Shown piece after piece: positions 1,311 to 62,701 of a DNA stretch of 64,000 nt. Position 1 is the first letter of the stretch. Each line of letters opens with the position of its first letter. Where the stretch lies: NCBI RefSeq assembly GCF_026571515.1, contig NW_026857798.1, positions 1 to 64,000 of the forward strand, written 5' to 3'. The notes beneath the pieces are model-generated. The model did not search any database. It was not told where the DNA came from and saw only the letters and a program-made list of their open reading frames with translations. The position numbers and the translations under genes are program-made. The stretch is from Ruditapes philippinarum. Lineage: Eukaryota.

Positions 1311-2165
1311 CTATTGCAGGTTAAATATCTGAAGAAAGTTAATGCACCGTCCATTTGCAGCATCACAACTGGCATAGAGCTTCTTTGTAATTCCACACCA
1401 ACATACTGCCGATGATTTAGTCAGTTTGTGTATCAAAACCTGTCCTTCAGAGCAGTCTCCTGATTTCTCTTCTATTACATTTCTCCCATGGTCACTCACA
1501 AAGACAGTACCATCATCTGACAGTGACATTCCCATAGGGTGACTCATATCACCATAACTATCCATCACATCACCCTGCCAGTTTAATCTTGATATTGTCT
1601 TCATGTCCCAGTCAGATACATAGATTGAACTTTTGTTACATGTAATATACCAGGGTAATTGAAAAATATTTTTTCCATCAATTGTTTTCAAGATAGTGCC
1701 GTTCATATCAAGAATTTGAAATTTTGCAGGATAACAAAATGACACAATAAGTTTACCTTGGAAGCAGCTAATACCATTACACTCTCCATCGACCTTCAGT
1801 GTGTGCTTCTTGATAAGTTTGTTTGATGAGATTGATATAAACTGCATTGCTTGTTTGTAAGGAAGTGTGACAGCAACTTCAGTATTGGTTACTTGTGTGA
1901 TATCCCATGGTATACCATCTAGTTGTAGTTGATCAGACACAGATTGACTGTTGGTATCCACCATCTTTACAGCATTGTTATTGAAGTCAGTGATGATTAG
2001 AAGTTCAGGAGTCAGCAGAGTCATTCCTGTGATCTTGCATGATGTGTTATCTTGTGATGTATTTACACAGATAACTCCCTCATGTGAAATTTCTCTAGAC
2101 CTTAATTGTACAGATTGACATTCTGTTTTTAAAGATTTTTGTGTCATGTTTTCTGGGACTGCCAT
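1311..2165 (-). CDS. TRIM-like paralog A: NHL/beta-propeller only (B-boxes and coiled coil deleted in frame)
   Basis: 284-aa open ORF. MAVP start is joined directly to TQKSLKTEC...HEGVICV; the rest aligns by eye with the C-terminal half of the 583/584-aa paralogs (ITGMTLLTP, PWDIT, SSIYVSD, GMSLSDDGTVFV). Confidence 0.8.
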   Translation of the reverse strand: MAVPENMTQKSLKTECQSVQLRSREISHEGVICVNTSQDNTSCKITGMTLLTPELLIITDFNNNAVKMVDTNSQSVSDQLQLDGIPWDITQVTNTEVAVTLPYKQAMQFISISSNKLIKKHTLKVDGECNGISCFQGKLIVSFCYPAKFQILDMNGTILKTIDGKNIFQLPWYITCNKSSIYVSDWDMKTISRLNWQGDVMDSYGDMSHPMGMSLSDDGTVFVSDHGRNVIEEKSGDCSEGQVLIHKLTKSSAVCWCGITKKLYASCDAANGRCINFLQIFNLQ

Positions 2166-10685: not shown

Positions 10686-12390
10686 CTATGACAGGTTATA
10701 GATGAGAACGTAGATGCCATGTGTTTTACCCCAAGCATAACAGCTATAATACAGCTTCTTTGTTTTTCCACACCAACACACAGCCCTTGGTCTAATCAGA
10801 TCCTTCAGCACCACCTTTCCTGAAGAACAGTCTCATGATATATCTTCTATAACATTTCTCTCCTGACAACACACAAACACAGTACCATCATCTGACAGTG
10901 ACATTCCACTAGGCATTCTTATACAATTATAACTACCTACCATATCACCTTGCCAATTTAATCTTGTCACTGTCTTCATGCTACAGTCAGATACATAGAT
11001 AGAACTTCTGTTACATATGATAAAGCATGGATCTTTGAAAATATTTTTTCTATCAATAGTTGTTAGTACAGTGCCATTCACATCAAGGATTTGAAGTTTT
11101 GTAGGATTAAGAAATGACACAATAAGTTTACCTTGATAATAGCTTATACCATTACAGTTTCCATCAACCTTCACAGTGTGCTTCTTTATAAGTTTGTTTG
11201 AGAAGATTGATATAAACTGTATTGTTTGTAAGTAAGGTAGTATGACAGCAAGTTCAGTACTGGCTACTGTGGTGATATCCCATGGTCTTTCATCTAGTTG
11301 TAGTTGATCAGACTCAGATTAACTGCTGATATCAACCATTTTTACAGCATTGTTATAGCAGTCAATGATGTTCAGGAGTCAGCAGAGTCATTCCTGTTAT
11401 ACAGCATTCCCTTTTATCTTTTGATGTTTTCACACAGATATCTCCCTCATGTGAAGATTGTCTAGACTTTATTTGTACAGGTTGACAGTCTTTTATTTAA
11501 AGTGTGTCAATGTACCCAGTGACTTCTCTGTTTTAAACACATTTATTATTACATCATTTGATTGAAAGTTGTGCTCTTTGATATTGAATGATGACAGTAT
11601 TAATAGGTTTCCCTCCATATCATTGATTACTTTCTTTGCAAGTTTTAAATCAATGAAGAGTTTGTCAGCTTGTTTTGTTGTGTTGAGTTGTTTGATTTTG
11701 TCTGATGATTTTTTCAAATATTTGGTTATATCTTTACATATTTCTTCTACTGCTTTCAGATGTTTGTTGTTGTTTTTTTTGTTCTATGACTTTAGATGCA
11801 TTTTCAACCTGTCTCTCAAGTTCATCTAGTCTTTGGTTGATTTCTTGGCGGAACTTTTTAATGTCAACTAATGCCTCTTTGAGAAAATCGTTTAAAATCT
11901 GTTGGCATTTGTCAGAAGTGTTATTTCTTGCCTTGAAGATAACTTGATACTCTTTGCTGTCTATTATATCACCAGAAATGTCTGGTATATAGTTGACATT
12001 GCAGGAAGTAGCTTGATGTTCAAGGGTAACACAAACACTGCAGAGAAATTCTGTATGATCATTACAGTAGAACTTGATCATTTCTTTTGGATGTTTACGA
12101 CACGGCAAGGTCAAGTCATCTGACAGGCCTGTGTGAATGGATGTTGAGGGTTGCTGCAAAACTTTAGGCATACTTGTTGCATCGAGAAGCGTATGCTGTT
12201 TGGAAAGCCTATTTATCTGATGGGCTTTAAAGCATGTATGGCAAATGTGTTCTTTACAGTCAGTGCAGTAACCATGGGCAGGGAGTCTAGTTCCTTCCTC
12301 GTCACAGTAAACTTGAAGATCTTCATCCGATGCCATGGATGTTGTTGATGATGAAAATTGTTTTTATGCTTTCTTTCTTGAGACTGCCAT
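10686..12390 (-). pseudogene. TRIM-like paralog B, pseudogene (B-box/coiled coil/NHL)
   Basis: Starts MAVSRKKA then TAA at codon 9. Other lesions: 9-bp loss of QPC in B-box 1, a deletion in the coiled coil, frameshifts near 11770, 11500 and 11370, and TGA at 10833-10835. ORF-track pieces 11734-12336, 11493-11717 and 10833-11174 all match the intact paralogs; ancestral TAG at 10686-10688. Confidence 0.9.
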
Positions 12391-16030: not shown

Positions 16031-16454
16031 CTCAGAAATACAATGGCTTATTATTCATTTCAAACTTGGTGTACTTTTTATTGTCATGAAAAAACACCAT
16101 AACTTTTCAAAAGGGCAGATAATCCTAATTTGTTTTTATAAGTAAAAATGTATTTACTTTAAACTTGCGATTCTTGTAGACTATCAAGGGCAGGTAAGTC
16201 TGCTAATCACATTTGCAGAATTATATTCTTTCTTTTCTATGCTGATTTTATTGAACTATATATATATTATAAAGCAGCACTCTTTCTCATTAACCAGATA
16301 GAAAAATCCGTAAATGTTACTAAAAATAGCCGAACTTCTTTTCATATTCCTACGCACCAACAGAAGGGGAGTAATACAGCATAACTTTATAATATAAACA
16401 GATAGGTGTTACTTCCCTTGTCATGATAGAAAGAACGACAATCAAATAAGATGA

Positions 16455-17085
16455 AACTAGAACTGTGTCTAAAGGACACGGATGCCCCCACTGACAACAT
16501 ATATGTGATATATATAGTGAAAAAAATCAACAAAGGGCCATAATTCTGTTAAATTTGGTTGCAGAAAAAATTCCTTCCTTTACTTCCGTCTACACATTAA
16601 GGTTGTTCATCCCTGCAAGTTTAAGCAAAATCTGCCATCCGGTTTAAGAGGAGTTGCGTTCACAAAATTTCTATATGGTATATAGTGAAAAAAATCTACA
16701 AAGGGCCATAATTCTCTTAAATTTGGTCGCGGCAAAAATTCCTTTTTTAACTACCATTTACACATAAAAGTTGTTCATCCCTGGAAGTTTAAGCAAAATC
16801 TGCCATCCGGTTTAAGAGGAGTTGCGTTCACAAAATTTCTATATAGAATTTAGTGAAAAAATCAACAAAGGGCCATAATTCTCTTAAATATGGCCGCAGC
16901 AAAAATTCGTTCCTTTACTGCCATCTACACATTAAGGTTGTTCATCCCTGAAAGTTTAGGCGAAATCTGCCATCCGGTTTAAGAGGAATTGCGTTCACAA
17001 GATTTCGGGACGTACGGACGGACTGCCTGCCGGACGGAAGGACAAGTGCAACGCTATATGCAGCCCACTTTGTGGGGGCATAAAA
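16455..17085 (+). mobile_element. HINE-like element family A, three ~168-bp units
   Basis: aactagaactgtgtctaaaggacac hairpin end; subterminal IR atgccccc/gggggcat; units starting near 16513, 16681 and 16849; (GACG)n; terminal palindrome cccactttgtggg; A-run. Confidence 0.85.
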
Positions 17086-17519
17086 AGTAAATTTTCGTGT
17101 TGGTGACACGAAATGGAGGAAAGGGCAAAATAGTTGATAAATACATCCACTTGGTACCTATGCTATGTATAAGGTACAACTATTCAATGATGGGAAATTT
17201 TTGACTCTTGCAAAACATGAAGTGGTAAAAGGTCTTTCTGATTTAATGACGTTCACTTGTGACCTGTACAGCCAATTTATTATTCCAAAAAAGGCAATTC
17301 AAGTGCAAACATCCAGCCTGAATCTTCATATATTGATAGCTTGTTTGAAACTCAATCCTGGACACTCTTAACAGCTCAGAACTCTGACATTTCTCTCCCT
17401 GAAAAAAGTGATTTACCTTACCAAATTTCAAGAACAACTTATCTTACTACTGGTAAAACAGGATCTAAATTGCCAAATATTTCCCAAAAACTTCAAGGTA
17501 ACAGGTTTGGACCTCCTCT

Positions 17520-23154: not shown

Positions 23155-24663
23155 TATGCAATCCTCCAAATGCCCAGAGGAATGGTAATTTAAGGGTATC
23201 AGCTGATGGCATGTCTCTGAAGTACATGTATTTCTGTGATGAAGGTTATAAAAAAAGTTTGGGGGGTATATAGGAGTCACCCGTTGGTCGGTCAGTCGGT
23301 CGGTCCAGACGTCCGTTTCATTTTCCTTGTCCGGAGCATAACTTGAAGTCTTATGGTTGGAATTCAATATATCTACAAACAATAGTCGAGCACATTGAGA
23401 GGAAGTGCAGTGCATAAGAACCATAACTCTCACTTGAATAATTAAAGAGTTATTGCCCTTTGTTGCTTTTCTTTGTCCGGGGCATAACTTGAAAGCAACT
23501 GGTTGGAATTCAAAATAACTTCATACAATTGTCAAACATAATAAGGGGAAGTGCAGTGCACAAGAACCATAACTCTATCTTAAGTAATTACAGAGTTATT
23601 GCCCTTTGTTACTTTTCCATTGATTTTTTTTGTCCTGACCATAACTTGAAGACTAATGATTTGAATTCAATATAACTACATACAATGGTCAAGCACATTG
23701 AGAGGAAGTGCAGTGCATAAGAACCATAACTCTAACTTGAATAATTACAGAGTTATTGCCCTTTGTTACTTGCCCTTGTCCAGGGCATAACTTGAAAAAC
23801 AACTGCTTGGAATTCAAAACAATTTCATACAATTGTCAAACAAAATCAGGGGAAGTGCATTGCACAAGAGCCATAACTCTATCTAAAGTAATTACAGACT
23901 TATTGCCCTTTGTTACTTTTCCATTGCTTTCTTTTGTCCGGACCATAACTTGAAGACAAATGGTTAGAATTCAATATAACTTCATACAATGGTCAAGCAC
24001 ATTCAGAGAAATGCAGTGTACAAGAACCGTATTTCCATCTTGACTTAGTATTACAGAGTTATTGCCCTTTGTTACTTTTCCTTGTCCAGAGCATAACTTG
24101 AAAACTACTGTTTTGAATTCAATACAACTTCATACAGTTCTCAAAGACATTAAAAGGAAGTGCAGTGCACAAGAGCCATAACTCCATTTTGACAAAAAAC
24201 AGAGTTACTGCCCTTTTATACTTTTCCTTGTCAGGAGCATAACTTAAAACGTACTGGTTGGCACTCAAAACAACTTCATACAATGGTCAAGCACAATACG
24301 AGGAAGTGCAGTGCACAAGAACTATAGCTCTATCTTCAGTATTTATAGAGTTATTGCCCTTTGTTCCTTTTCATTGTCTTTCTGGACTTATTACAGAGTA
24401 ATTCAATTAAACTTCATCAATGGCCAACCACATTGAAAGGAAATACAACATATATGAACCACAACTATCTTTAATTGCCCACAACCATAACTCTATATTT
24501 CAATTCTTTTATAAGGTATTCTGTTACTAGTAACATCCTCTTTTCCGAAGCAGTCTTGTGGGGGTATTAATCACATTCAGTGATAGTTCTAGTTTAGATG
24601 AGACAGGCGTGAATACCTGCCACAATGATAGCACTGGATGGCAATATTCCCACCCAAAATGTG
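23155..24663 (+). pseudogene. Sushi/CCP domain exon relic 2, split by a tandem-repeat element
   Basis: Phase-1 acceptor ttattcag|TA, then CNPPNAQRNGNLRVSADGMSLKYMYFCDEGY (23157-23249), an insertion, then LDETGVNTCHNDSTGWQYSHPKC (24594-24662). Confidence 0.75.
23250..24594. mobile_element. HINE-like element with ~140-160 bp tandem array
   Basis: ggggggtatatagg end followed by a (GTCG/GTCC) microsatellite; repeated gcataacttgaa...ggaagtgcagtgcacaagaaccataactc...gagttattgcccttt units; other end gggggtattaatcac...gtgatagttctagtt. Confidence 0.8.
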
Positions 24664-27052: not shown

Positions 27053-30000
27053 TTATCTTTGGAACAAATTGCTTCTACGTTTCAAATATGCGGCTACCAA
27101 GTACTTTGCTAATCTTCTTGGGTGATGTTTTACAATGTTTACAAATTTATCACAGTCTCTCATATCTACATATTGGTCACTTAAAAGGATTTCACTGAGA
27201 TAATTATGTCGAGTGTCTTGATATAAAGAACAATTCATTACAAAATGCAGTTCATCTTCAACGGAACCAGTATTACACAATTTGCAAAGTCTCTGTTCTG
27301 GTGTTTCACCAACATACCGCCCGGTTTCTACACGGAGTGGTAGGATACCGCACCGCAATTGTGCGAGAAGAGAGCGCTCTTTTCGTGGTAAGTTAAGATC
27401 CAAATAAGATTCTTTACCAAAATCACTTTTAAATTGTATGTAAGTTCGCAGTTTTGCAACTTGGGTTACTTTTGTAGCCCAGTCAGTTTTGTGGTGTTCA
27501 ATAATAGAATGTTTAGCTGTTGCTAAATTAATTGGTTGGCGGTTTATAAAGTTATCATTCATTCCAATTTTCGACATAATATCTTTCACTTCGCTACACC
27601 AGTTATTTTGACAATGGCTATAGTCCACATTGAAGACTTGTTTTGTTATTCTAGTGTCATCGAGCGATACGAGCCTATTCCACATTCGTAACATGTTTAA
27701 CCATCGCCTGTAGTTGGTGGGAACCCATCCAATGTCACCAGTAATTGCAAGTATAGGTGCAAATCTGTGGACACCAAGATAGTACCTGATCGCACGATGC
27801 TGCACATTGTCCATAACTTGGTATTTTCTGTAACCCCACACGCTCGAACAGTAATCCATAATTGGCACAACGCATGAATCAAATAGTTTTTCAAATGTAT
27901 TAAAACCAAAGTGCTTTAGGTCTCGAACCTTTGCAATGATTTTGCCAAGGGCCCTTCCAGCGCTTTTTGCGAGAATGTCGGCATTTGATGAGAAGTCACC
28001 CTTGCAATGGAAAGTTACACCAAGATATTTGTAACTATCTACAAGCTCTAACACGTTTTCACCAATCCTGAATGAAAAGTCTGTGCATGCAGCGCGGCCT
28101 CGGCGGAAGTGAACACACTTAGATTTTTCAGTGTTAATGAGTACGCGCCAACGTCTACACCAATCACGTAACGTGTCTAAAATACGTTGTAGATCTTCCT
28201 CTGTCTTAGCTATACAAACGATATCATCTGCATACAACAGCATTGAAACCTTTTTACCATTAAGTTCAAAACCAAGGTCAAGGTCATTCACTTCTTTTAC
28301 AAGGTCATTGGCAAATATTGAGAATAGCGTCGGCGACGCCGTATCACCCTGTTTTACGCCGGTAAGACACGTGAACCAGTCCGTTAGCATGTTATTTAAG
28401 CGTACACTAGCAGTGGAATGTTTGTAAATGCTCTTTATTGATGTATATATTTTACCGTCAATGCCGTTTAGCAACAATTTGTATAACAACATGTCGATAT
28501 CGATGAAATCAAAGCATTTACGTAGATCAATAAACGCTGTAAATACCGTTGTATTGTTACGTATGATGCCGTTAAGTGAGAACACATGGTCTTCGCATGA
28601 TCGATTACGCCTAAACCCGTTTTGCTCGTCTTCAAGGATTTCGTACTCGTCTAAATACCTAGTCAAACGCTTATTAATAAATCCAGTGTAGAGCTTGCTC
28701 ACGCATGAAAGTAGACTTACATCCGGTAGTGTAAGGGGACACGTGGATCTGACAAGGGGTCCTTCAGAATAGGGCAAATGATCGACTTTCTCCAAATTGA
28801 GGGTATAATGCCAGTGTCAAACATTAATTGAAACAGTTCTCTCAATGTTGCTATAATAACGGGGCATTTAAGTACAAAGTATGGAATGTCGTCATAGCCG
28901 CAGGCAGAACGTGATTTAGCTTTCATTACTAGGTCACTTATCTCCGTTAACGTGATATTGCCGTTAAGCGTTACGTTTGAGGTATACAAAGGGTCATTGA
29001 TATTGTTTTCTAATAGTAATTTATGCACCTTTGCCCGTCTATAATGCTCATTATCGAATTCGCTATTATCTGTTCCGTTGTATAAACTCTCAAAGTCACG
29101 CTTCCATTTTTCAAGAACTTCGTTTTCATTTCGCACAACGTTACCATTTTCGTCTATAATTTCACACGGGATAGATTTATCACTACGTGGACCCAGCTTG
29201 TTTATCTTATCCCAGAATTCGTTGGGATTATTTGTCGATATAGTTTCTATTTCAATCGATTTTTCTTTCCTGTACGCCCGTTCTGCTTGCCGCAACGATT
29301 TATCGAAACTGTCCCTTGCATGTATGTATTCACGCCTCAACGCTGTTTTGACTCGATGGTTATTACAACATTTTAGAAACTCACGTTCCCGCTGACGTAA
29401 CCGTTGCCACTGTTCTGATAAAGTGTCATTCCAGTACGGCTTTCTAGTTTTGTGACGTTTATTAGTTGACCGAGATTCATATTTTGGCAATTTTCTGTTC
29501 ATTTCGCCGGTTATGGCTTCACAAAGGTTACTATAAATTGCGTCCATATCACACTGCGTTTCTCGGCAACTTTCAATATTTGAAATACAGTCTATAATTG
29601 CTAGTCTCGCGATATCACTATCCATAAAGTCGTCTGGAACAGTTCTCACCTTGTACCGTTGTCGCCTGATCTCCTGACCCGCAGACGTTTGTTGACCCAT
29701 ATTGTGCGAATGCACCGTGTTAAATTCCGTTATAATTGCCGAGTGATCAGGTTATCTTGATCTTTCATCCAATAGCTCGTGTAATCCGCAATTATCTACA
29801 ACTGTTTGCATTGATAAAACCATAAATGAGATACACTGCGTGAATTGGTCGTGTGGAACACATATATAGTCAACTACCGCTCTACCCTTACGAGAAATCG
29901 AGGTCCAATTGTTATCATGGTACTGATCCGAACATCGACCGTTTAAGACACAAAATTTCGCATCGTTCAAAAATTCAATCAAATCGCGTCCATGTTGGTT

Positions 30001-30558
30001 GACTGATTTGTCCAAGACGTGCCTAGGTGGGATACTGTCAAAATTTCCGATAATATCCGATAATGAACCGATTCGTGCGTTGAAATCTGCTGCTAGGAAT
30101 ATACCGTCACTTTCACTATTAATATATATTTGAGATAATAAGTGAGCGTAAAAACTTTGGGCATCACGACCACGAGTAGAGTTTTCTGGTGGCAAATAAC
30201 ACGAAAATACTATAAAATCGTAGTCTGTATTTTTGTGAACAAATTTTACGCCGAGTATTCCGTCAAGCGATTTTTCTATAACAGAAATTTCATATTCCTC
30301 ATAAAGCCATGATTTAACCAAAAGGCCTACACCTCCCGACGGCTTTGGTGCATTGACATGTATATCTTGTCTATTGTGCCCAATCCACGTGTAACCTGGC
30401 ACGAGTAATACATCATTTCCACCTAGATGCGTTTCACATAATGAAATTATATCGCTATTCAAACCATTCACTAAATTAATCCGCAATTCATTATTGTCAG
30501 TAGTCCAGCCACACACATTGAGATGGGCAAGACTTATAGACTTGGGTCGGGGTGCATC
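27053..30558 (-). pseudogene. LINE ORF2 (APE endonuclease - reverse transcriptase - CCHC), disrupted
   Basis: Endonuclease motifs HLNVCG, LCETH, YLPP, ADFNAR, VDYI, PDHS; RT motifs QNGFR, FIDLRKCFD, GVKQG, YADD. In-frame TAA at 29752-29754 (SR*PDHS) and a 1-bp frameshift near 28724 (HYR/DVSLLS). Confidence 0.93.
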
Positions 30559-31665
30559 CTAGTGACCAGCTTCCGGTGCCTGGCCTCTGTTGAACTGTGA
30601 TGGTTCCTGCGAGTCTTGTTGAGTCGGGGTTGCCTGTTGTTGAACACGCTGTTTTATGCGACCGCTAGCGTCTATGCGCAACGAACGTCCTTCCGGTAAA
30701 TTTCGCAGGACTGCACGTGCGTTCAACTCTATGATTCGCTCAATTCTCGATTTGCTGCTGCGAACCTGTAAATTTTTATACTGTGTTATGAATCTTAATT
30801 GTGGTTTATGTCTTAGGAACAGTACCTTTTGTTCCAATGAACCCACGCTGAATTTCAAAATTGGCGGTTTGTCATGAAATTTTGCCGGCAGACGGATGGC
30901 GTCGGTAACGGTGACTTGGGACTTAACCTCTTCTCCCAGCGAATTAACGAGTTCTTGAGCTTTCTGAATTAAGTTTTCATTGACCGTGACCTGAATACCA
31001 CTGGCCGTGAGAGTGCGATTTGGGTCATGCAAAGGATTACCATGATAAACGGTGGGTGGGTCAGATAATCCGCCACTGTTCAATAAATTTGATCCTTGTT
31101 GCCCAAGGGTATCTAATCTAGATTGCATGTGCTTAATTGTTGTCAATACACCATCTACGCGGCGAGTTTCTTGAGCGATGTTTTCAGTCAGCTCTCGTTT
31201 TAATGTTTGCATTTTGGAGTTGATAGTTGAGGTCAGCTCTATTTTCAAATTGTCCAATTTAGTTTCAAATAAAGCCACCATAGAGTCCTGGCCCTCTTTT
31301 ATCTTAGTCACAGTATTAACTAAAAATGCTAATTGTTCTTTTTCTGTCATGATAGATTGTTGAGAAATGCTACCTGGGGTCGAAGTATTGGCTCCCGCCA
31401 TATTTATACCGTCGGCGCCCTTCGATGATTTGCTGCTAGGAGTTTGTCTTCTGGTTTCCATAGAATCGAACACTGTATCCTCACACTCACTGTATTCCAA
31501 ATTACTTTCAATACAACTGTCATATAAAACACTATTTGCTGCGCCGAGAACTTCGCTTGTCAATAGTCCGCCATATTTGAACTGTTTTGTTGACCTGTTA
31601 TCACTATCAGAGTCACTGCTTTTCTTGCGTTTTTGTCTATCCCTGTGCTTTTTTCCACGACCCAT
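30559..31665 (-). CDS. LINE ORF1 protein (basic N-terminus, coiled coil, RRM/CTD-like region, Q-rich tail)
   Basis: Uninterrupted 368-aa ORF directly upstream of the endonuclease. KPPILKF...K..FL..K..L resembles LINE ORF1 C-terminal domains. Confidence 0.8.
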   Translation of the reverse strand: MGRGKKHRDRQKRKKSSDSDSDNRSTKQFKYGGLLTSEVLGAANSVLYDSCIESNLEYSECEDTVFDSMETRRQTPSSKSSKGADGINMAGANTSTPGSISQQSIMTEKEQLAFLVNTVTKIKEGQDSMVALFETKLDNLKIELTSTINSKMQTLKRELTENIAQETRRVDGVLTTIKHMQSRLDTLGQQGSNLLNSGGLSDPPTVYHGNPLHDPNRTLTASGIQVTVNENLIQKAQELVNSLGEEVKSQVTVTDAIRLPAKFHDKPPILKFSVGSLEQKVLFLRHKPQLRFITQYKNLQVRSSKSRIERIIELNARAVLRNLPEGRSLRIDASGRIKQRVQQQATPTQQDSQEPSQFNRGQAPEAGH

Positions 31666-33809
31666 GTATGATACCCAACTCTAACAACATTTAAATAACG
31701 ATTGTAACATAAATCCAGGTCTGAATGTCATTGGAAATGTTTTAAATCCAGTTTTTCTTTAGCGGGTGTTTATCGAGACCTCACCGCCATTGCTCGCTTA
31801 CGTCATATATAAATATTCTATTCTATATTCTATAAATAGAAAAATTTTGTTTACACTCTAGTTTTAATCTAAATATACTGGAAATTGGTATGAAAGTTTG
31901 TTTTGATGATTTCTAAGTGAAGATCGAATATGGGTCACTTGGCGTCTAAAACTAGGTAACACCTCCCAAAAGGGGAAAAAAACCTTGTTAACACTCTAGT
32001 GGTCACATGCATATATGTTTGACTAAATTGTCATCAAACTGACTTGAACGTTGGGCCAGAAATGTTATATCAGATGCCGAATTTTATTGTGATATCAACT
32101 GACCTGCTTTTGATATTAATGATATATATTGTTTGATCTAGTTTCTCGTGCTTTTTTTAAATACAAACGGCGAAATTTGGACTTGGACCAGTGGTGTAAC
32201 TTCTGATTCAGAATCGACTTATGATATCGGCTGACCTACGTTTGATACTTTTTAATATCACTTGACCTATTTTTTTTGACGTACAGACCTGAAATTTGGA
32301 CCAAGGGTGTAATTTCAGAGGCTGATTATAATTTTGATATTATATAACCTACTTTTGATATTTATGGAATCATTTGACCTACTCTCTGGTTTTTTGACAA
32401 ACAGATTTGAAATTTGCACTAGGAATGAAATTTTTGATGCTGAATTGATTTTTGATATCAACTGACCTACTTCTGATACTTTTGATATCTCTTTTCCTAC
32501 AATGAATTGATGGATCAGGTGGGCGATCTAGGGTCATCTTGGCCCTCTTGTTTGTATATAACTGGCTTAATGAATTACCTTCATATTAAGACACAACATC
32601 TTTTTGGTCAGAACCTCGTGTATTTCAACCTCAAATTGACCTTAACTCATGTGAGACATGACCTTTAAGGTCAAATTATAATCTTATTTTCACTGATTAT
32701 AACACTATAATTGGCTGTAACTTTGTAACTTATCAATGGATTATTTTCAAACTTGGACAAAACAAACTTTTTGATGATATTCTGAAAGGTTGAACTTACC
32801 CTGAGCTTGAGGTCAAATATTGAATTTTGGTTCAGTTGTCATAATTTTTTATGTTTGGACTTGATTTATATGTGGACAAAACAACACTTGAGACCAAACA
32901 GACATGTGGAATAATTTAGATATAACTTTGACCTTAAATGACATTAACTGTCAAATGATTGAATTTTGATTAAATCTTTTTTAAACTATGTCATTTATTT
33001 TTGGAAATGACTATACTTGGAAAAAACAACAAGTGTGACTAGACAGACCTATAAACGAGTGTCAGGGGTATTCGGCACTTGTGACAATTTCTATAGTTAT
33101 TTTTAATTCTGACAGGGCAAAACATTAAAAACAGTTATCATGGAAAAGTCATTATATGTTTACACCGTAAGGATATCGGATTAATATTTTACGTAATATC
33201 CAAGTGGTGTACAATTTGCTTTTGAGATGCTTGTGCCTGTTATAATAAGAAGACAATATTTGATCTCTGGGAGATTTATTCTTTTTCAGTCAAATAAGTA
33301 TGTGTCAAATACAATACAAAACACAAAACATCATTCATAAAGAAATCATACAAGTAATGTATGTGTATCTGAAACTATCTATATTATAATGGATTTCATA
33401 ATTTTATTTACCGAATTTATTAAGATATTTCTAAATCTAAAAAACAATATAGATTGATACCAAGATGAAGTAATATCTCTTCATTATTTCATTATTATTC
33501 TTACAAATTATTTAAAGTGGGGAATGGTATAGATTACATATAAAGTACTCACAAGGCACATGAAAAGTACCGAAAATCTTTACTTGAGATAATTTTTTTG
33601 TTAAAGAACAATATTACTAATTTAATTTACTAACTAATTGTAATTATAAACTTGATACAAAATCCAACAATTATAAAGAACACACTTATTTGACAATTTT
33701 GAATTTGAAAAGTATTTACAAACACATATTTAATAAATACAAAAGAATGATTAAAAAAGAGAGAAATAAGAATCCCTAAAGAAAGCCCCAAAAGTCAATT
33801 ATTACTTAA

Positions 33810-35957: not shown

Positions 35958-37712
35958 CTATGATAGGTTATAAATGTAAAGGAAGTTTTGATTTTTATTA
36001 TCAAAAGCATAGCAGCTATAATACAGCTTCTTTGTTTTTCCACACCAACATACAGCCCTTGGTGTCTTCAGATCCTGCAGCACCACCTTTCCTGTAGAGC
36101 AGTCTCCTGATATCTCTTCTATAACATTTCTCCTCCAGTCACACACAAAGACAGTACCATCATCTGACAGTGACATTCCTGTAGGGTAACCCATAGCACT
36201 ATAACTACCTATCACTTCACCTTGCCAGTTTAATCTTGTTACTGTCTTCATGTGACAGTCAGATACATAGATAGAAATTCTGTTACATGTGATATACCAT
36301 GGATCTTTGAAAATATTTTTTCCATCCATTGTTGTCAGTATAGTGCCATTCATATCAAGGATCTGAAGTTTTGCAGGAAATCGTAATGACACAACAAGTT
36401 TACCTTGGTAACAGTTTATACCATAACATTTCCCACCAACCTTCACAGTGTGCTTCATTTTAAGTTGTTTGTTTGATGAGATTGATATAAATTGTACTGT
36501 TTGTTTGTGAGGAAGTGTGACAGCAAGTTCAGTACTGGCTACTGTGGTGATATCCCATGGTTTATCATCTAGTTGTAGTTTATTAGACACAGATTGACTG
36601 CTGGTATCCACCATCTTTACATCTTCGTTATTATAGTCAGTGATGATAAGAAGATCAGGAGTCAGCAGAGTCATTCCTGTTATATAGCAAATGTAGTTAT
36701 CTTTTGATGTCTCCACACAGATTTCTCCCTCATGTGAAGATTGCCTAGACTTTATTTGTGCAGATTGAGATTCTTTATTTAAAGTTTTCTGTGTCAATGT
36801 TCCTAGTGACTTCTCTGTTTTAATCAAATTTAATATTACATCATTTGATTGAAAGTTGTGCTCTTTGATATCAAATGATGACAGTTTTAGTAGTGTTTCA
36901 TCCATATCCTTGATTGTCTCCTGTGAAAGTTTTAAATCAATGAAGAGTTTGTCAGCTTGTTTTGTTGTGTTGAGTTGTTTGATTTTGTCTGATGATATCT
37001 TTAGAGATTTGGTAACTTCCTCACATGTTGTTTCTACTGCTTTCAGATGTTTTTTGTTTTCTTGTTCTATGACTTTAGCTGCATCTTCAGCCTGTCTCTC
37101 CAGTTCATCTAGTCTTTGGTTGATTTCTTGCCGAAACTTTTTAATGTCAACTAATGCATCTTTAAGAGAGCTGTTTGATTTGTGTGTCATGTCCTTGACA
37201 TCTTTTAATATCTGTTGAAATTTGTCAGAAGTGGTATTTACTGCATTCAAGATAACTTGATATTCTTTGCTGTCTATTATATCACCAGAAATGTCTGGTA
37301 TATAGTTGACTTTGCAGGAAGTAGCTTGATGTTCAAGTGTAACACAAACACTGCAGAGAAATTCTGTATGATCATTACAGTAAAACTTGATCATTTCTTT
37401 TGGATGTTTAGGACACGGCATAGTCAAATCATCAGACAGAACTGTTTGAATGGATGTTGAGGGTTGCTGCAAAACTTTAGGCATACTTGTTGCATCAAGA
37501 CGTGTGTGCTTTTTGGTAAACTTGTTTATCTTATGTGCTTTAAAGCATATCATGCAAAGATGTTCCTTGCAGTCAGTACAGTAACCATGGGCAGGGAGTC
37601 TAGTTCCTTCCTCGTCACAAGGCTGGCAGTAAACTTGAAGATCTTCATCTGATGACATGGATGTTGTTGATGACGAAAACTGTTTTGATGCTTTCTTTCC
37701 TGGGACTGTCAT
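35958..37712 (-). CDS. TRIM-like paralog C, intact: B-box1, B-box2, coiled coil, NHL-type beta-propeller; no RING in this ORF
   Basis: 584-aa ORF. B-box 1 CQPC...CTDCKEHLCMICFKAH...H; B-box 2 CPKH...FYCNDHTEFLCSVCVTLEH; helical heptad region; ~40-aa repeats of the P-x-G/D-I...V-x-D-x-x-N type. Confidence 0.9.
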   Translation of the reverse strand: MTVPGKKASKQFSSSTTSMSSDEDLQVYCQPCDEEGTRLPAHGYCTDCKEHLCMICFKAHKINKFTKKHTRLDATSMPKVLQQPSTSIQTVLSDDLTMPCPKHPKEMIKFYCNDHTEFLCSVCVTLEHQATSCKVNYIPDISGDIIDSKEYQVILNAVNTTSDKFQQILKDVKDMTHKSNSSLKDALVDIKKFRQEINQRLDELERQAEDAAKVIEQENKKHLKAVETTCEEVTKSLKISSDKIKQLNTTKQADKLFIDLKLSQETIKDMDETLLKLSSFDIKEHNFQSNDVILNLIKTEKSLGTLTQKTLNKESQSAQIKSRQSSHEGEICVETSKDNYICYITGMTLLTPDLLIITDYNNEDVKMVDTSSQSVSNKLQLDDKPWDITTVASTELAVTLPHKQTVQFISISSNKQLKMKHTVKVGGKCYGINCYQGKLVVSLRFPAKLQILDMNGTILTTMDGKNIFKDPWYITCNRISIYVSDCHMKTVTRLNWQGEVIGSYSAMGYPTGMSLSDDGTVFVCDWRRNVIEEISGDCSTGKVVLQDLKTPRAVCWCGKTKKLYYSCYAFDNKNQNFLYIYNLS

Positions 37713-37833
37713 GTTTAACCTAAAATGTAATATGATAGATTACTATGTATTGCATGTTTGTCAAATACATAAAACTTGAGATTCATAGATGAATTGAAAC
37801 AATGGCAAAGTCTTGCTAATTTCTTCTATGACC

Positions 37834-38302
37834 TTTTTATGCCCCCACAAAGTGGGGAGCATATAGCGTTGCACTTGTCAGTCCGTCCATACCTCTGTCC
37901 GTCCGTACGTCGGTCCGTCCTGAAATCTGGTGAACACAACTCCTCTTAAACCGGATGGCAGATTTTGCTTAAACTTCCAGGGATGAACAACCTTAATGTG
38001 TAGATGATAGTTAAGGAAGGATTTTTTGCTGCGACCAAATTTAACAGAATTATGGCCCTTTGTTGATTTTTTCACTATATACTATGTAGAAATTTTGTGA
38101 ACGCAACTCCTCTTAAACCGGATGGCAGATTTTGCTTAAACTTCCAGGGATGAACAACCTTAATGTGTAGATGATAGTAAAGTAAGGAATTTTTGCTGCG
38201 ACCAAATTTAACACAATTATGGCCCTTTGTTGATTTTTTCACTATATACCATATATATGTTGTCGGTGGGGGCATCCGTGTCCTTTGGACACAGTTCTAG
38301 TT
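37834..38302 (-). mobile_element. HINE-like element family A, two units, ~120 bp upstream of the paralog C ATG
   Basis: Reverse complement of 16455-17085 with one unit fewer; empty site gaccttttttgtggttaaaag at 12521-12541. Confidence 0.88.
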
Positions 38303-38586
38303 TGTGGTTAAAAGTTATGTTTGGAAAATATTCAAGCATTTATACATTGTTCATTTCATATTTTTGATTTGTTTAAATCATGATGAAAGTTGATTTACGG
38401 TTATGTAATTTTTAAGAGTTTTTATGCCCTAACTTCTTGTGGGGATATAGATTTTCTTTTACAAGGGTACAATTTGTCAGACATTTGCCTGAAGTTCAGG
38501 TTTTTTTATACTCCTGAAAGTACTCTTTTTGCATTATTAAACCAATTAAAATAATGCTACATTCAGTATTTTCAGGTTTTCTGATA

Positions 38587-39106
38587 TTTATGCCCCCACA
38601 ATGTGGGAGCATATAGCGTTGCACTTGTCCGTCTGTCTGTCCGTCCGTCTGTACGTCCCGAAATCTTGTGAACGAAACTCCTCTTAAACCCGATGGCAGA
38701 TTTTGCTTAAACTTACAGGGATGAACAACCTTAATGTGTAGATGGTAGTAAAGGAAGGAATTTTTGCTGCCACCAAATTTAACAGAATTATGGCCCTTTG
38801 TTGATTTTTTCACTATATACTATGTAGAAATTTTGTGAACGCAACTCCTCTTAAACCGGATGGCAGAGTTTGCTTAAACTTCCAGGGATGAACAACCTTA
38901 ATGTGTAGATGGCAGTGAAGGAAGGAATTTTTGCTGCAACCAAATTTAACAGAATTATGGCCCTTTGTTGATTTTTTCACTATATACTATGTAGAAATTT
39001 TGTGAATGCAACTCCTCTTAAATCGGATGGCAGATTTTGCTTAAACTTCAAGGGATGAACAACCTTAATGTGTAGATGGTAGTAAAGTAAGGAATTTTTG
39101 CTGCGA
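38587..39106 (-). mobile_element. HINE-like element family A, truncated (about 2.7 units)
   Basis: Same terminus (tttatgcccccacaatgtgggagc), microsatellite and units; lacks the hairpin end. Confidence 0.85.
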
Positions 39107-50412: not shown

Positions 50413-51293
50413 AACAAGAGCTGTCACAGGAGACAGCGAAGCTCGACTAATAAAATACTGGACGCAGTAAGGAGGACAGAACTATGAAAGAAACATCAAT
50501 TATTTATAATTATGTATTAAGTTATAGTAAAAAAATAACATTTGTTAACATTAATTCCAAGATCAAGGGGAATAATTCTAGAAATAGTCATGCTAGAGTT
50601 ATGGACCTTGTCACACAGCATTTGTGTAATGATAAGAAATATATATTTGAAGTTTGAAGTAGATACCTATAAAAGTAAAGAAGTTATAATATTTCTTAAA
50701 GAAAATCCTAAGTTCAAAGAGAGATAAATCTGTAAATATTGCTTCAAGAGTTATGAACATTGTCATATAAAATGTAATTGATGATAAGGAATAAGTATTT
50801 GAAGTTTGAGGTAGATACCTTTAAAAATAAAAATGTTATAATAAAAATAACATTTTTCTATTAAAAAAATCTAAGTTTATGGGGAGATAATTCTTGCAAT
50901 ATTGGTGCTAGAGTTATAAACCTTGTCACATAAGATGGGGATGATGATAACGTAAATATATTTGAAGTATGAGGTTGATCCCTTAAGAAATAAAGAAGTA
51001 ACAGTAAAAAATAGTATTTTTTAAGGAAAATTCTAAGTTCAAGGGGAGATAAATCTGAAAATATTGGTGCTAGAGTTATGAACCTTGTCACATAAGATGT
51101 GGTTGATGATAAGGAAGATATATTTGAAGTTTGAAGTTGATACCTTAAGGAATGACAAAGTTATAGTGAAAAATATTTTACTGCACCAAAACTTTAATCT
51201 AAAATCTGGACGCGGACGTGGACGCCGACGTGAACGCCGACGCCGGGACGAGTAGTACAGCTCCCCATGTGCTTCGTATAGTTGAGCTAAAAA
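50413..51293 (+). mobile_element. HINE-like element with ~155-165 bp tandem array
   Basis: aacaagagctgtcacaggagacagc hairpin end; four gctagagttatgaaccttgtcaca units; (GACGCC)n; gagctaaaaa terminus. Confidence 0.8.
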
Positions 51294-52396: not shown

Positions 52397-52414
52397 CATT
52401 TTAGGTAAAATATG
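52397..52414 (+). promoter_or_regulatory. Probable 3' splice acceptor 7 nt before the ATG, conserved in all five TRIM-like copies
   Basis: cattttag|gtaaaatATG here; cattttag|gtaaaacATG (A), gtaaaatATG (B), gttaaacATG (C), gtgaaacATG (E). Confidence 0.55.
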
Positions 52415-54163
52415 GCAGTCCCAGGAAAGAAAGCATCAAAACAATTTTCATCATCAACAACATCCATGGCATCAGATGAAGATCTTCAAATTCATTGCCA
52501 GCCTTGTGACGAGGAAGGAACTAGACATTCTGCTCATGGTTACTGTACTGACTGCAAGGAACACCTTTGCAAGACATGTTTTAAAGCACATAAGATAAAC
52601 AAGTTTACCAAAAAGCATACACTTCTGAATGCAACAAGTATGCCTAAAGTTTTGCAACAGCCCTCAACATCTATTCACACATGCCTGATAGATGATTTGA
52701 TCTCACTATGTCATAAACATCCAAAAGAAATTATCAAGTTCTACTGCAATGATCATACAGAATTTCTCTGTGGTGTTTGTGTTACCCTTGAGCATCAAGC
52801 TACTTTCTGCAAAGTCAACTATATACCAGAAATTTCTATTGATATAATAGACAGCAAAGAATATCAAGTTATCATGAATGCAGTAAAGACCACTTCTGAC
52901 AAATTTCAACAGATATTAAAAGATGTCAAGAACATGACATACAAATCAAACAGCTCTCTCAAAGATGCATTAGTTGACATTAAAAAGTTTCGACAAGAAA
53001 TCAACCAAAGACTAGATGAACTGGAGAGACAGGCTGAAGATGCAGCTAAAGTCATAGAACAAGAAAACAACACACATCTAAAATCAGTAGAAACAACATG
53101 TGAAGAAGTTACCAAATCTCTGAAGGTATCATCAGACAAAATCAAACAACTCAACGAAACAAAACAAGCTGACAAACTTGTAATTGATTTAAAACTTGCA
53201 GAGAAAGCAATCAAAGATATGGAAGGAAAACTACAAACACTGTCATCATTCAATATTAAAGAGCACAACTTTAAATCAAATGATGTTATATTAAATTTGG
53301 TTAAAACAGAGAAGTCACTGGGTACATTGATAAAGAAAATTTTAAATACAGAATGTCAACCTGTACAAATAAAGTCTAGACAACCTTCACATGAGGGAGA
53401 AATCTGTGTGAAGACATCAAAAGATGAATCAAGCTGCTATATAACAGGAATGATTCTGGTGACTCCTGATCTTCTTATCATCACTGACTGCAATAACAAA
53501 GCTGTAAAGATGGTGGGCACCAGCAGTCAATCTGTGTCTGATCAACTACAACTAGATGATGAACCAGAGGATATCACTAGAGTAACCAGTACTGAACTTG
53601 CTGTCACAATTCCTTCAAAACAAACAATACAATATATATCAATCTCATCAAACAAACTCATAAATAGGCATGCAGTGAAGGTTGGTGGAGAATGTCATGG
53701 CATAAGCTGTTACCAAGGTAAATTTGTTGTGTTATTCCTTTATCCTACAAAACTTCAGATCCTTGATATGAATGGCACTATACTGACAACAATTGATGGA
53801 AAAAATATTTTCGAAGATGCATGGCATATCACATGTAACAGAAGTTCTATCTATGTATCTGACGATGCCATGAAGACGATAACAGAATTAAACTGGCAGA
53901 GTGAAGCAATTGCTATTTATTGTGGTATGAGTTTCCCTACAGGAATGTCACTGTCAGATGATGGTACTGTCTTTGTGTGTGACAATGGAAACTGTGTTAT
54001 AAAAGAGATGTCAGGAGACTGTTCTACAGGAAAGGTGGTGTTGCAGGATCTGGATGGACCATGGGCTGTATGTTGGTGTGGAGAAACAAAGAAGCTGTAT
54101 TATAGCTGCAATGCTTTGGATGAGAAATATAGCAACTTCCTTCAAATCCATAACCTGTCATAG
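52412..54163 (+). CDS. TRIM-like paralog D, intact: B-box1, B-box2, coiled coil, NHL-type beta-propeller; no RING in this ORF
   Basis: 583-aa ORF collinear with paralog C along its whole length, with the same Cys/His ligands. Confidence 0.9.
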   Translation: MAVPGKKASKQFSSSTTSMASDEDLQIHCQPCDEEGTRHSAHGYCTDCKEHLCKTCFKAHKINKFTKKHTLLNATSMPKVLQQPSTSIHTCLIDDLISLCHKHPKEIIKFYCNDHTEFLCGVCVTLEHQATFCKVNYIPEISIDIIDSKEYQVIMNAVKTTSDKFQQILKDVKNMTYKSNSSLKDALVDIKKFRQEINQRLDELERQAEDAAKVIEQENNTHLKSVETTCEEVTKSLKVSSDKIKQLNETKQADKLVIDLKLAEKAIKDMEGKLQTLSSFNIKEHNFKSNDVILNLVKTEKSLGTLIKKILNTECQPVQIKSRQPSHEGEICVKTSKDESSCYITGMILVTPDLLIITDCNNKAVKMVGTSSQSVSDQLQLDDEPEDITRVTSTELAVTIPSKQTIQYISISSNKLINRHAVKVGGECHGISCYQGKFVVLFLYPTKLQILDMNGTILTTIDGKNIFEDAWHITCNRSSIYVSDDAMKTITELNWQSEAIAIYCGMSFPTGMSLSDDGTVFVCDNGNCVIKEMSGDCSTGKVVLQDLDGPWAVCWCGETKKLYYSCNALDEKYSNFLQIHNLS

Positions 54164-59229: not shown

Positions 59230-60812
59230 GAAAAATATTCAGGGCAATAACAGAGCCATAACTCTTTGTTAAATAGTTATATTTGGACATGCCAATGAGA
59301 TGTTAATTGTCTTTTTGTATCGATGGTTTCCATACAGTTTTGTTGAAAATCAATACAGAGGTTGCAAAGAAATAACAATATTGCTCTATATGCATACTAC
59401 ATAAATCAAGGGCCATATCTCTGTAATGAAGGGTCTGGTCAGAACAAGGCAGCAGATTATGCACATCTCCTTATAGTATTAATGGTTCCCATAAAGTTTA
59501 ATTGAATTCCAGCCAGTAGTTGCAGAGAAGTAGCAGGGAAACAATTATTGCTCTATATGCATACTGCATAACTACTCAAGGGCCATAACTCTGAGTTAAA
59601 GTGTCTGATTTGAACAAGGAGAAAATATGCGCATTCCCTCTTGGTATTGAAGGTTCCCATAAAGTTTCGTTGAGTTCCAGCCAGTACTTGCAGAGATGTA
59701 GCGCGGAAATGAGTTTTACTCTATAAGCATAATCATTATATGAATAACTTATTCAGGGCTATAAGACTGAGTTAAAAGGTCTGACTGGAACAAACCGACG
59801 TGTGCACATCTCCTCTTGATATTGATGATTCTCATTAAGTTTCGTTGAATTCCAGCCAAAAGTTGCAGAGAAGAAGCGTGGAAACGATTATTGCTCTATA
59901 TACATACTGCATAACTAATCAAGGACCATAATTCTGAGTTGACCGGAACAAGCCACCGATATGCGGATCTCCCCTTGGTATTGAAGGTTCCCATAAAGTT
60001 TCGTTGAATTCCAGACAGTTGTTGCAGAGAAGTAGCGCAGAAACGATTATTGTTCTATATGTTTACTGCATAACTAATCAAGGGCCATAACTCTGAGTTA
60101 AAGTGTCTGACCGGAACAAGACGATAATGTGCGCATCTCCTCATGGTATTGAAGGTTCTCAATTCCAGCCAGAGGTAACAGAGAAGTAGCGCGGAAACGA
60201 TTTTTGCTCTTTACACATAATGCATAACTAATCAAGGGCCATAACTCAGAGTTAAAGTGTCTGACCGGAACAAGGCGTCGATATGCGCATCTACTCTTGG
60301 TATTGAAGGTTCAAATAGAGTTTCGTTGAATTCCAGCCAGTAGTTGCAGAGAGGTAGCGCGGAAACGATTTTGCTCTATACGCATTTTAATGCATAACTA
60401 TTCAAGGGCCATAACTCTGAGTTAAAGAGTCTGACTGGAACAAGCCGGCAATATGCACACCTCCTATTGATATTGATGATTCCCATAAAGTGTTGTTGAA
60501 TTCCAGCCAGTTGTTGCAGAGAACTAGGGAGGAAACGAAATATTCGGACGGACGGACGGAAGGACGGACGTTCTCACAGGACAATCATTATGTGGTTACT
60601 CTATTGTTCTTTATATTGTTCTTTTAGCAACATAAAAGAAAATAGCCATATAAAAGCATTACGGAATAATTGGCATCAAAGAGAAAGAACAGTTACCTTT
60701 TCTCCCTCTAGCTCCCTCATAATTACTGTCCTGTGAGTGCCGACAGACGGACGGACGGAAAGCGCTAAAACAATATACCCCCCCCCCCAATTCCATCGAT
60801 GGGGGATAACAA
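59230..60812 (+). mobile_element. HINE-like element with about eight ~155-175 bp units, upstream of paralog E
   Basis: aatcaagggccataactctgagttaaag units at ~59404, 59575, 59750, 59917, 60077, 60231, 60401; (GACG)n; cccc...gggggataacaa terminus. 5' boundary uncertain. Confidence 0.8.
60573..60737. mobile_element. 165-bp MITE inside the (GACG)n microsatellite
   Basis: Imperfect ~20-bp TIR ctcacaggacaatcattatg / cataattactgtcctgtgag. Confidence 0.7.
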
Positions 60813-61225: not shown

Positions 61226-62701
61226 ATGGCAGTCCCAGGAAAGAAAGCATCAAAACAAGTTTTATCATCAACAACATCCAGGTCAGATGAATTGACCTTG
61301 CCGTGTCGTAAACATTCAAAAGAAATGACAAAGTTCTACTGCAATGACCATAAAGAACTTCTCTGCAGGGTTTGTGTTACCCTTGAACATCAAGCTACTT
61401 CCTGTAATGTCAACTATATACCAGACATTTCTGGTGATATATTAGAGAGCAAAGAATATCAAGTAATCTTGAATGTAGTAAAGACCACTTCTGACAAATT
61501 TCAGCCGATATTAAAAGATGTCAAGGACATGAAACACAAATCAAACAGTTCTCTCAAAGATGCATTAGTTGACATTAAAAAGTTTCGGCAAGAAATCAAC
61601 AAAAGACTAGATGTACTTGAGAGACAGGCTGAAGATGCAGCTAAAGTCATAAAAAAAGAAAACAAAAAACATCTGAAAGCAGTAGAAGAAATATGTGAAG
61701 ATATAACCAAATCTTTGAAGAAATCATCTAATAACATCAAACAACTTAACAGAAAGAAACATGCTGATAATCTATTCATTGATTTAAAACTTGCTAAGAA
61801 AACAATCAAAGATATGGAGGGAAAACTATTAAAACTGTCACAATTCTATATCAAAGAGCACAACTTTCAATCAAATGATGTAATATTAAATTTGATTAAA
61901 ACAGAAAAGTCACTGGGTATATTGACAATGAAAACTTTAAATACAGAATGTCAATCTGTACAAATAAAGTCTAGAAAATCTTCACATGAGGGAGAAATCT
62001 GTGTGAAGACATCAAAAGATAAAATAACATGCAGGATAACAGGAATTACTCTGCTGACTCCTGATCTTCTTATCATCACAGACTACTTTAACAATGCTGT
62101 CAAGATGGTGGATACCAGCAGTCAATCTGTGTCTGATCAACTACAACTAGATGGTGGACCATGGGATATCACAAGATTAACCAGTACTGAACTTGCTGTC
62201 ACAATTCCTTTAAAACAAACAATACAATTTATATCAATCTCATCAAACAAACTCATAAAGAAACACACTATGAAGGTTGGTGGAGAATGTCTTGGTATGA
62301 GCTGTTACCAAGGTAAACTTGTTGTGTCACTACGTTCTCCTGCAAAACTTCAGATCCTTGATACGAATGGCATTATGCTGACAACAATTGATGGAAAAAA
62401 TATTTTCAAATATCCATATAATATCACATGTAACAGAAGTTCAATCTATGTCTCTGACTGTGACATGAAGGCAATAACAAAATTAAACTGGCAAGGTTTA
62501 GTGATAGGTTGTTATAGTGGTATGAGTTATCATACAGGAATGTCACTGTCAGATGATGGCACTGTCTTTGTGTGTGATAATGGAAGCTGTGTTATAGAAG
62601 AGATATCAGGAGACCATTGTACAGGAAAGGTGGTGCTGCAGGATCTGAAGAGACCATTAGCTGTTTGTTGGTGTGGAAAAAACAAAGAAACTGTATTATA
62701 G
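61226..62701 (+). CDS. TRIM-like paralog E: B-box1 deleted, C-terminal frameshift (possibly a young pseudogene)
   Basis: 491-aa ORF. SSTTS is joined to RSDELTLPCRKH (B-box 2). An extra A in ggaaaaaac near 62680 (ggaaaaac in paralog C) shifts the frame; the ancestral end CYALGEKYGNFLHICYLS* is still readable to TAG 62757-62759. Confidence 0.8.
   Translation: MAVPGKKASKQVLSSTTSRSDELTLPCRKHSKEMTKFYCNDHKELLCRVCVTLEHQATSCNVNYIPDISGDILESKEYQVILNVVKTTSDKFQPILKDVKDMKHKSNSSLKDALVDIKKFRQEINKRLDVLERQAEDAAKVIKKENKKHLKAVEEICEDITKSLKKSSNNIKQLNRKKHADNLFIDLKLAKKTIKDMEGKLLKLSQFYIKEHNFQSNDVILNLIKTEKSLGILTMKTLNTECQSVQIKSRKSSHEGEICVKTSKDKITCRITGITLLTPDLLIITDYFNNAVKMVDTSSQSVSDQLQLDGGPWDITRLTSTELAVTIPLKQTIQFISISSNKLIKKHTMKVGGECLGMSCYQGKLVVSLRSPAKLQILDTNGIMLTTIDGKNIFKYPYNITCNRSSIYVSDCDMKAITKLNWQGLVIGCYSGMSYHTGMSLSDDGTVFVCDNGSCVIEEISGDHCTGKVVLQDLKRPLAVCWCGKNKETVL

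Follow-up and report, generated by a model that had tools for sequence, protein, structure and literature searches.

The 64-kb window analyzed here, a contiguous stretch of the Ruditapes philippinarum genome, contains five tandem copies (A-E) of an intronless gene with a B-box/B-box/coiled-coil/NHL domain order. The copies were identified using tblastn and self-comparison, which detected no copy fragments beyond these five in the window. Only two of the five, C and D, are intact and full-length, and they share 79% identity. Copy D (52412..54163, + strand) is an intact single-exon coding sequence of 583 amino acids, as indicated by its open reading frame, by Pfam matches above the cut-off (zf-B_box and NHL) and by structural modeling, and copy C (35958..37712, - strand) encodes 584 amino acids. 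A probable splice acceptor of a 5' UTR intron, predicted from the sequence, is located seven bases upstream of the ATG of D (52403..52404, + strand), and its TTTTAG context is common to all five copies, upstream of each.

The other three copies are reduced or broken, and both birth and death of copies are evident in the family. Copy E (61226..62701, + strand, with homology extending to about 62756) is devoid of B-box 1 and carries a frameshift in blade 6, caused by one additional A in the A-run at codon 557; an error of assembly could account for this extra base. The junction of its B-box-1 deletion (61226-61300, + strand) recurs in a contig of run X1, and therefore the deletion is not peculiar to this assembly. 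Copy B (10686..12390, - strand) is a pseudogene with two in-frame stops, three frameshifting indels (4, 4 and 8 bases) and in-frame deletions of 9 and 30 bases. Copy A (1311..2165, - strand) is an open gene of 284 amino acids encoding a propeller alone; it has kept the acceptor and start and lost both B-boxes and the coiled coil by in-frame deletion. Propeller-only or scaffold-truncated forms recur in the relatives P0013, P0036 and P0038 (326 aa), which are missing the first ~260 residues. Such proteins might act as decoys or bind as monomers, or their gene models may be incomplete.

The surroundings of the copies include repeats of several kinds. A non-LTR retrotransposon is positioned between copies B and C (27053-31680, - strand) and comprises a 373-aa ORF1-like frame with no Pfam match, an endonuclease (PF03372) and a reverse transcriptase (PF00078), with its ORF2 broken by one stop and one frameshift. 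A tandem repeat of 167-168 bp is present in inverted orientation at 16454-17087 and 37833-39106, one of the two lying directly upstream of copy C. Other arrays with units of 146-170 bp were found at 6448-7078, 23321-24378, 50519-51175 and 59379-60538, the final pair being situated close upstream of D and E, respectively. D encodes Gly at codon 369 (53516-53518), a position held by Asp in at least 90% of relatives. The alternative letter is found at this base in 32 of 32 reads of run X21 and in the entire contig depth of runs X1 and X2. The Gly may be an uncommon allele or reflect a mistake in the assembly, or else the reads may stem from paralogs.

The two B-boxes of D (codons 29-70 and 99-129; 52496..52798, + strand) correspond to PF22586 (below cut-off) and PF00643. 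The latter scored above the cut-off in C, D and E, with two B-box stretches in C and D, and the NHL family PF01436 did so in C and D. Just 27 residues precede B-box 1, and no RING domain was found in C, D and E using Pfam, in 29 scanned relatives, or among the domains precomputed for 96 longer matches. TIR, Death or other N-terminal effector domains were likewise absent from these 29 relatives and 96 longer matches. A profile search matched the B-box/coiled coil of TRIM28 (E 8e-14). The architecture is that of a RING-less TRIM-NHL-like protein and is neither that of a canonical TRIM ligase nor that of a finTRIM. Two relatives, P0255 and P0256, are ~1060-1090 aa long, with a score for P0255 that points to two propellers. 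They could be genuine tandem-domain proteins, or gene models may have been fused in error.

In the full-length model, the B-boxes are followed by a 98-residue helix (149-246) and then by two shorter helices. The initial annotation reported a coiled-coil run identical in C and D and gave its length as 38 residues; the run is real, with two silent differences, but extends over 42 residues (D 178-219; 52943..53068, + strand). When two copies of residues 95-315 were modeled together, an antiparallel dimer was predicted with a score of 0.63, compared to 0.00 for the best of three controls, with at least 96% of contacts shared between runs and a pLDDT of 84. Seventeen of 29 eukaryote homodimers and none of 30 single chains attain the mark that this score passes. 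The best contacts (194-201, 197-201 and 190-209) place the predicted two-fold center in the middle of the C/D-identical stretch. The prediction supports the constant oligomerization scaffold envisaged in the initial annotation, with the reservation that the pass may be owed to likeness to solved TRIM coiled coils.

The C-terminal part of D (codons 325-583; 53384..54160, + strand) was modeled with AlphaFold2 as a six-bladed NHL β-propeller with 24 strands, velcro closure and a mean pLDDT of 94.6. Foldseek retrieved the NHL domains of Brat, Mei-P26, Thin and TRIM2 as top matches (TM 0.77-0.82, 12-17% identity), with Brat as the best one (0.82), and profile searches matched Thin, Brat, TRIM71 and TRIM2. 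In NHL propellers, the b-c and d-a loops make up the top face, which in Brat is an electropositive RNA site according to the available excerpt of PMC4015489. From the DSSP string alone, without coordinates, the propeller positions of D were classed as top-loop (68), bottom-loop (42) and strand (149); the entropy profile had been viewed before this classing, and the limits were set by DSSP and left untuned.

Hypervariable positions were mapped in all six blades of D, all on the + strand. In blade 1, they occupy the d-a loop (codons 340, 341 and 343; 53429..53440) and the b-c loop (codons 360, 361 and 363; 53489..53500), and in blade 2 the d-a loop (383-384) and b-c loop (402) within 53558..53617. 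Blade 3 (53690..53743) has codons 427 and 429 and the b-c loop 443-444, blade 4 (53816..53869, with paralog reads ending at 53863) has 469, 471 and the b-c loop 485-486, and blade 5 (53933..53989, with paralog reads ending at 53983) has 508, 510 and the b-c loop 525-526. Blade 6 (54056..54130) contributes codons 549 and 551 and the b-c loop 567-573. The variable loops listed in the initial annotation are real, but the list overlooked the b-c loop of blade 1 (360-363) and the long b-c loop of blade 6 (567-573). Its assignment of KNIF to a strand core was not upheld, as DSSP puts this motif in the d-a loop before blade 4, and therefore each top loop varies only in part.

For comparison with other members of the family, we collected 82 close relatives, namely 45 proteins named as R. 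philippinarum, 14 from Mercenaria mercenaria, 21 metagenome records, and copies C and E from the window. An alignment (A1) was built from D, C and 73 of the 80 other matches, with six short-coverage sequences and the distant P0082 excluded; some of its rows may be alleles or haplotigs. A broader profile search returned 1249 representatives at E values up to 1e-30, some of them perhaps without a propeller since the profile contains the B-boxes, and six of ten representatives checked carry names, coming from Ruditapes, Mercenaria, Mactra and Mya. Additional DNA copies were also sought in metagenomes, where one distant locus (22% identity) turned up among 258 pattern matches; it was not used.

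Among the 73 relatives, 29 propeller positions are hypervariable (at least 2.5 bits). Twenty-five of them fall within the 68 top-loop positions and none within the 42 bottom-loop positions (Fisher p 9e-7), and the remaining four (429, 471, 510 and 551) are the starts of strand a, which by topology are on the top face. Thus, the variable residues lie on one face of the propeller, as judged from loop topology, to an extent beyond chance. In each blade, they recur around the proline before strand a and immediately after strand b. The first 325 residues (75 rows) have five positions at 2.5 bits and none at 3 bits, whereas the propeller has 17 at 3 bits. The median pairwise identity is 14% at the 29 sites versus 73% in the rest of the propeller, and 74 of the 75 rows have distinct 29-residue strings. 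The motif sets quoted as variable in the initial annotation are all present in the codon alignment of the five copies, and GMSLSDDGTVFV was indeed found in all five, so that its observation of hypervariable loops is confirmed.

The same propeller positions are variable in three separate expansions. Taken alone, the 14 Mercenaria proteins vary at 20 sites, of which 17 belong to top loops and none to bottom loops, and 12 of the 14 group apart from the C + D clade (SH-aLRT 86 and 87) in a quick tree of modest support, with 4 of 72 branches strongly supported. In a distant family that is 33% identical to D, represented by 14 of its 41 cluster members, variation affects 21 of the 28 sites that were mapped, compared to 3 of 42 bottom sites (p 1e-10). 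The close pair P0007/P0088 has 36 propeller differences, including 24 in top loops or strand-a starts and two in bottom loops.

Selection on the five copies was analyzed using our own GY94-type code rather than codeml, with naive empirical Bayes site assignment and broken codons treated as missing data. The top loops gave an omega of 1.63 (p 0.001 versus 1), compared to 0.43 for bottom loops and 0.56 for strands (top versus bottom, p 2e-11), and the scaffold (codons 94-306) gave 0.47 with no positive class. Models permitting positive selection were preferred in the five copies by both the M1a/M2a (p 4.5e-9) and M7/M8 (p 2e-9) comparisons, the latter identifying 15 sites with a posterior above 0.5 (12 in top loops, three in strands and none in bottom loops). 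At the 20 sites defined in Mercenaria, omega was 4.5 in the five copies (LRT 57, p 4e-14) and stayed between 3.0 and 4.5 across all six variants of the sequence set and multi-base option. The harshest variants were not significant. When pseudogene B was left out and multi-base changes were allowed, the M1a/M2a comparison gave p 0.18 and the whole top-loop class p 0.28, and when the synonymous rate was freed on the 20 codons alone, p ranged from 0.10 to 0.86.

A reading with no diversifying selection would hold that the top loops are free of constraint, the family being redundant and in decay, and that their divergence is inflated by gene conversion in patches or by multi-base mutation acting locally. 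It draws on the loss of significance in some model variants and on the state of the cluster, where three of the five copies are deleted, truncated or dead. In addition, the synonymous rate is raised ~1.9-fold at the codons adjoining variable sites (p 0.02), and the third positions of variable codons are also elevated (0.39-0.41), for which reason patchy conversion or multi-base change appears to contribute. However, positions 1 and 2 of the 20 codons diverge at 0.49 (0.42-0.56), well above four-fold sites overall (0.14, 0.09-0.19), four-fold sites within three codons of variable sites (0.16, 0.08-0.25) and flanks (0.18-0.20). Silent differences in codon pairs for the same residue number 9 of 55 at variable sites versus 229 of 1668 elsewhere. 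The LRT maxima in simulations were 6.4 (42 neutral runs) and 41.4 (42 runs with a doubled rate at those codons), both below the observed value. Moreover, the bottom loops are equally exposed yet conserved, and the recurrence of the same variable positions in three expansions likewise speaks against this reading, which we regard as improbable. With a local rate shared between variable codons and their neighbors, omega was 1.7-2.6, with p below 0.05 in seven of eight variants and 0.11 in one; a doubled local rate brings the value at the 20 sites to about 2.5. Thus, dN/dS exceeds 1 at the variable sites under most models, and positive selection at the top face is well supported; its size is uncertain, and other processes add to the divergence.

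The scaffold and the propeller carry different tree signals. Informative sites favor the grouping C + D in the scaffold (11 of 15) and D + E in the propeller (16 of 29), and support for C + D falls to 8 of 29 sites in the propeller (Fisher p 0.009). Clustering of the informative sites among copies B-E was not significant in a permutation/adjacency test (47 sites, p 0.08). In the distant 33%-identity family, neighboring sites show greater compatibility than they do after shuffling (13 rows, p 0.0045), and a 251-residue fragment clustered with D has 11 differences from it, seven of them within 525-538, including the entire b-c loop 525-528. The diversity has likely arisen by point substitution under selection combined with short loop exchanges between paralogs. 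A special mutator with a single-base bias, as in diversity-generating retroelements, was considered and rejected, as there is no dominant change class at the variable codons; A/G changes make up 0.31 of the changes there and 0.32 elsewhere.

The 29 sites are rich in Asp (11%), Tyr (11%), Asn (10%), Arg (7.5%), Lys (7%) and Trp (6%). Aromatic residues (Tyr, Trp and Phe) account for 19.5% of the variable sites versus 3% of the bottom loops. Taken as a residue count rather than a surface potential, the net charge of the 29 sites ranges from -6 to +5 with a median of -1; it is below zero in 44 of 75 rows, and D stands at -6. This composition resembles that of antibody CDRs. It would fit varied protein or glycan ligands better than a single mode of RNA binding.

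The initial annotation had drawn an analogy to RNA-binding NHL domains, and the family might accordingly be a Brat-like repertoire in which each copy reads a different viral or cellular RNA sequence through its top face. Structurally, the propeller is closest to domains that bind RNA, namely the NHL domains of Brat, Mei-P26 and TRIM71. In Brat, RNA is bound by the top face (PMC4015489, available excerpt), and the aromatic enrichment of the variable sites would suit such a role. However, the Brat face is electropositive in that same account, and the analogy fits poorly with the median charge of the clam sites, again as a residue count. Brat-like RNA binding is doubtful because the variable face is rich in Tyr, Trp, Asp and Asn and not uniformly basic, and we consider an RNA-reading repertoire quite unlikely.

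Signs of expression were sought in sequencing runs. Run X2, which is only guessed to be RNA, contains a contig that passes into different sequence at the acceptor predicted for D; eight of ten upstream bins are without cover in this run, and four pieces of 129-275 bases match D with zero differences. The pattern suggests spliced transcripts of D or close copies. Raw RNA run X23 yielded 14 reads, 13 of them of partial fit. Run X21 was rejected as expression evidence, since 89% of its reads run into unlike sequence, loose read ends start or finish with GATC, and non-coding DNA is covered. Half or more of the sampled words of D were not found in any run (best share 0.47 among the 20 runs with matches), which may reflect divergent alleles or absence.

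Taken together, we infer an immune role and consider it fairly probable that the family is a germline repertoire of intracellular pathogen-recognition proteins, which is the most likely mechanism. The variable face, rich in Tyr, Trp, Asp and Asn, would bind foreign protein or glycan epitopes, for example those of capsids or parasite surfaces. As the coiled coil is predicted to be an antiparallel dimer centered on the stretch constant in C and D, each dimer would carry two propellers, and mixed dimers between copies may form because the scaffolds of the copies are near-identical. In TRIM5alpha, dimers are connected through their B-boxes, building up higher-order arrays on targets of repetitive structure. 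By analogy, the clam B-boxes could join dimers into bigger assemblies on such a target, and partner proteins would supply any ubiquitin or signaling output because a RING is missing.

The proteins could instead be substrate adaptors that bring the clam's own or damaged proteins to a ubiquitin ligase under stress, independently of infection. β-Propeller top faces are common substrate sites, and RING-bearing mollusc B-box proteins are present among the look-alike clusters. Slow-changing endogenous clients are, however, unlikely to drive continuing positive selection in several lineages, making such adaptors a very improbable explanation. Conflict within the genome or between cells would predict a signature of selection and turnover identical to that of a pathogen-recognition repertoire, with the propellers recognizing particles of germline transposons or retroelements, or foreign clam cells such as those of transmissible cancers, rather than ordinary pathogens. 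TRIM-NHL proteins are described as active in germ lines in the accessible part of the literature, and the broken LINE inside the cluster is a weak pointer in the same direction. Conversely, nothing observed here ties the family to gonad or elements, and oyster TRIM-like transcripts are tied to parasite and virus disease in the available portions of PMC9892467 and PMC6971885; this explanation seems unlikely to us.

A further-reaching version of the pathogen-recognition repertoire is possible, though we hold it only tentatively. Clams, and probably other marine invertebrates, would then possess a cytosolic antibody-like repertoire of dozens of TRIM-NHL propellers with twelve CDR-like loops each, diversified by selection and loop shuffling and multiplied by combinatorial pairing, which mixed dimers formed through the shared coiled-coil center would allow. 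Such a repertoire would be the NHL counterpart of TRIM5/finTRIM and a main specificity layer of bivalve intracellular immunity.

Bivalve genomes contain many B-box genes labeled 'TRIM-like' or 'uncharacterized', and these recur in oyster disease-resistance studies with no mechanism attached, judging from the accessible parts of the reports. The 29 positions on one propeller face are a likely specificity code for this family. Because these positions are named, the code is testable through ligand screens, for which the propeller is suited as a small, well-folding domain, as well as through the association of loop haplotypes with resistance and through the formation of mixed dimers. A recognition role would recast the NHL domain from a conserved RNA reader to a scaffold for variable recognition.

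B-box families are expanded or abundant in bivalves (PMC8382680 and PMC5549309, available excerpts), and the clam relatives bear automatic names such as 'TRIM2/3/33/71-like' or 'uncharacterized' B-box proteins. In oysters, TRIM-like transcripts, for the most part of the 'TRIM2/3-like' kind, go along with tolerance of or resistance to disease in the excerpts of PMC9892467 and PMC6971885, and they may or may not belong to the clam family; the former source describes the mode of action of TRIM-like proteins in bivalves as still open. The available excerpts of the bivalve B-box reports give no account of a hypervariable propeller face, its selection or its mode of action. Likewise, a hypervariable NHL face in TRIM-like genes of bivalves was not the subject of any paper among the matches listed, in which subscription journals, a frequent outlet for shellfish immunology, are thinly covered. 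Variable propellers of a different type, WD40, are described for amphioxus immune-type proteins in the accessible part of PMC8195603.

The RING-less TRIM-NHL proteins (Brat, Mei-P26, Thin, TRIM2/3 and LIN-41/TRIM71; subfamily C in the excerpt of PMC3503706) likewise combine two B-boxes, a long coiled coil and a C-terminal six-bladed NHL propeller. The RING is absent from Brat as it is from the clam proteins, whereas a canonical TRIM E3 ligase has an N-terminal one. In contrast to the TRIM-NHL proteins, which are encoded by few conserved genes, the clam family is large, tandem and subject to turnover. It also differs in its hypervariable, not uniformly basic top face, its single-exon coding sequence and its 12-17% identity to the best solved propellers. 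In its evolution, it resembles finTRIM and TRIM5alpha, which share with it a clustered expansion, a near-constant N-terminal scaffold, selected loops on the C-terminal binding domain and traces of recombination (PMC2657112, in the portion available). Induction by virus has been shown for finTRIM. The binding domain is B30.2/SPRY in finTRIM and TRIM5alpha and an NHL propeller in the clam proteins, which have no RING. The clam family is of TRIM-NHL build with finTRIM/TRIM5-like evolution.
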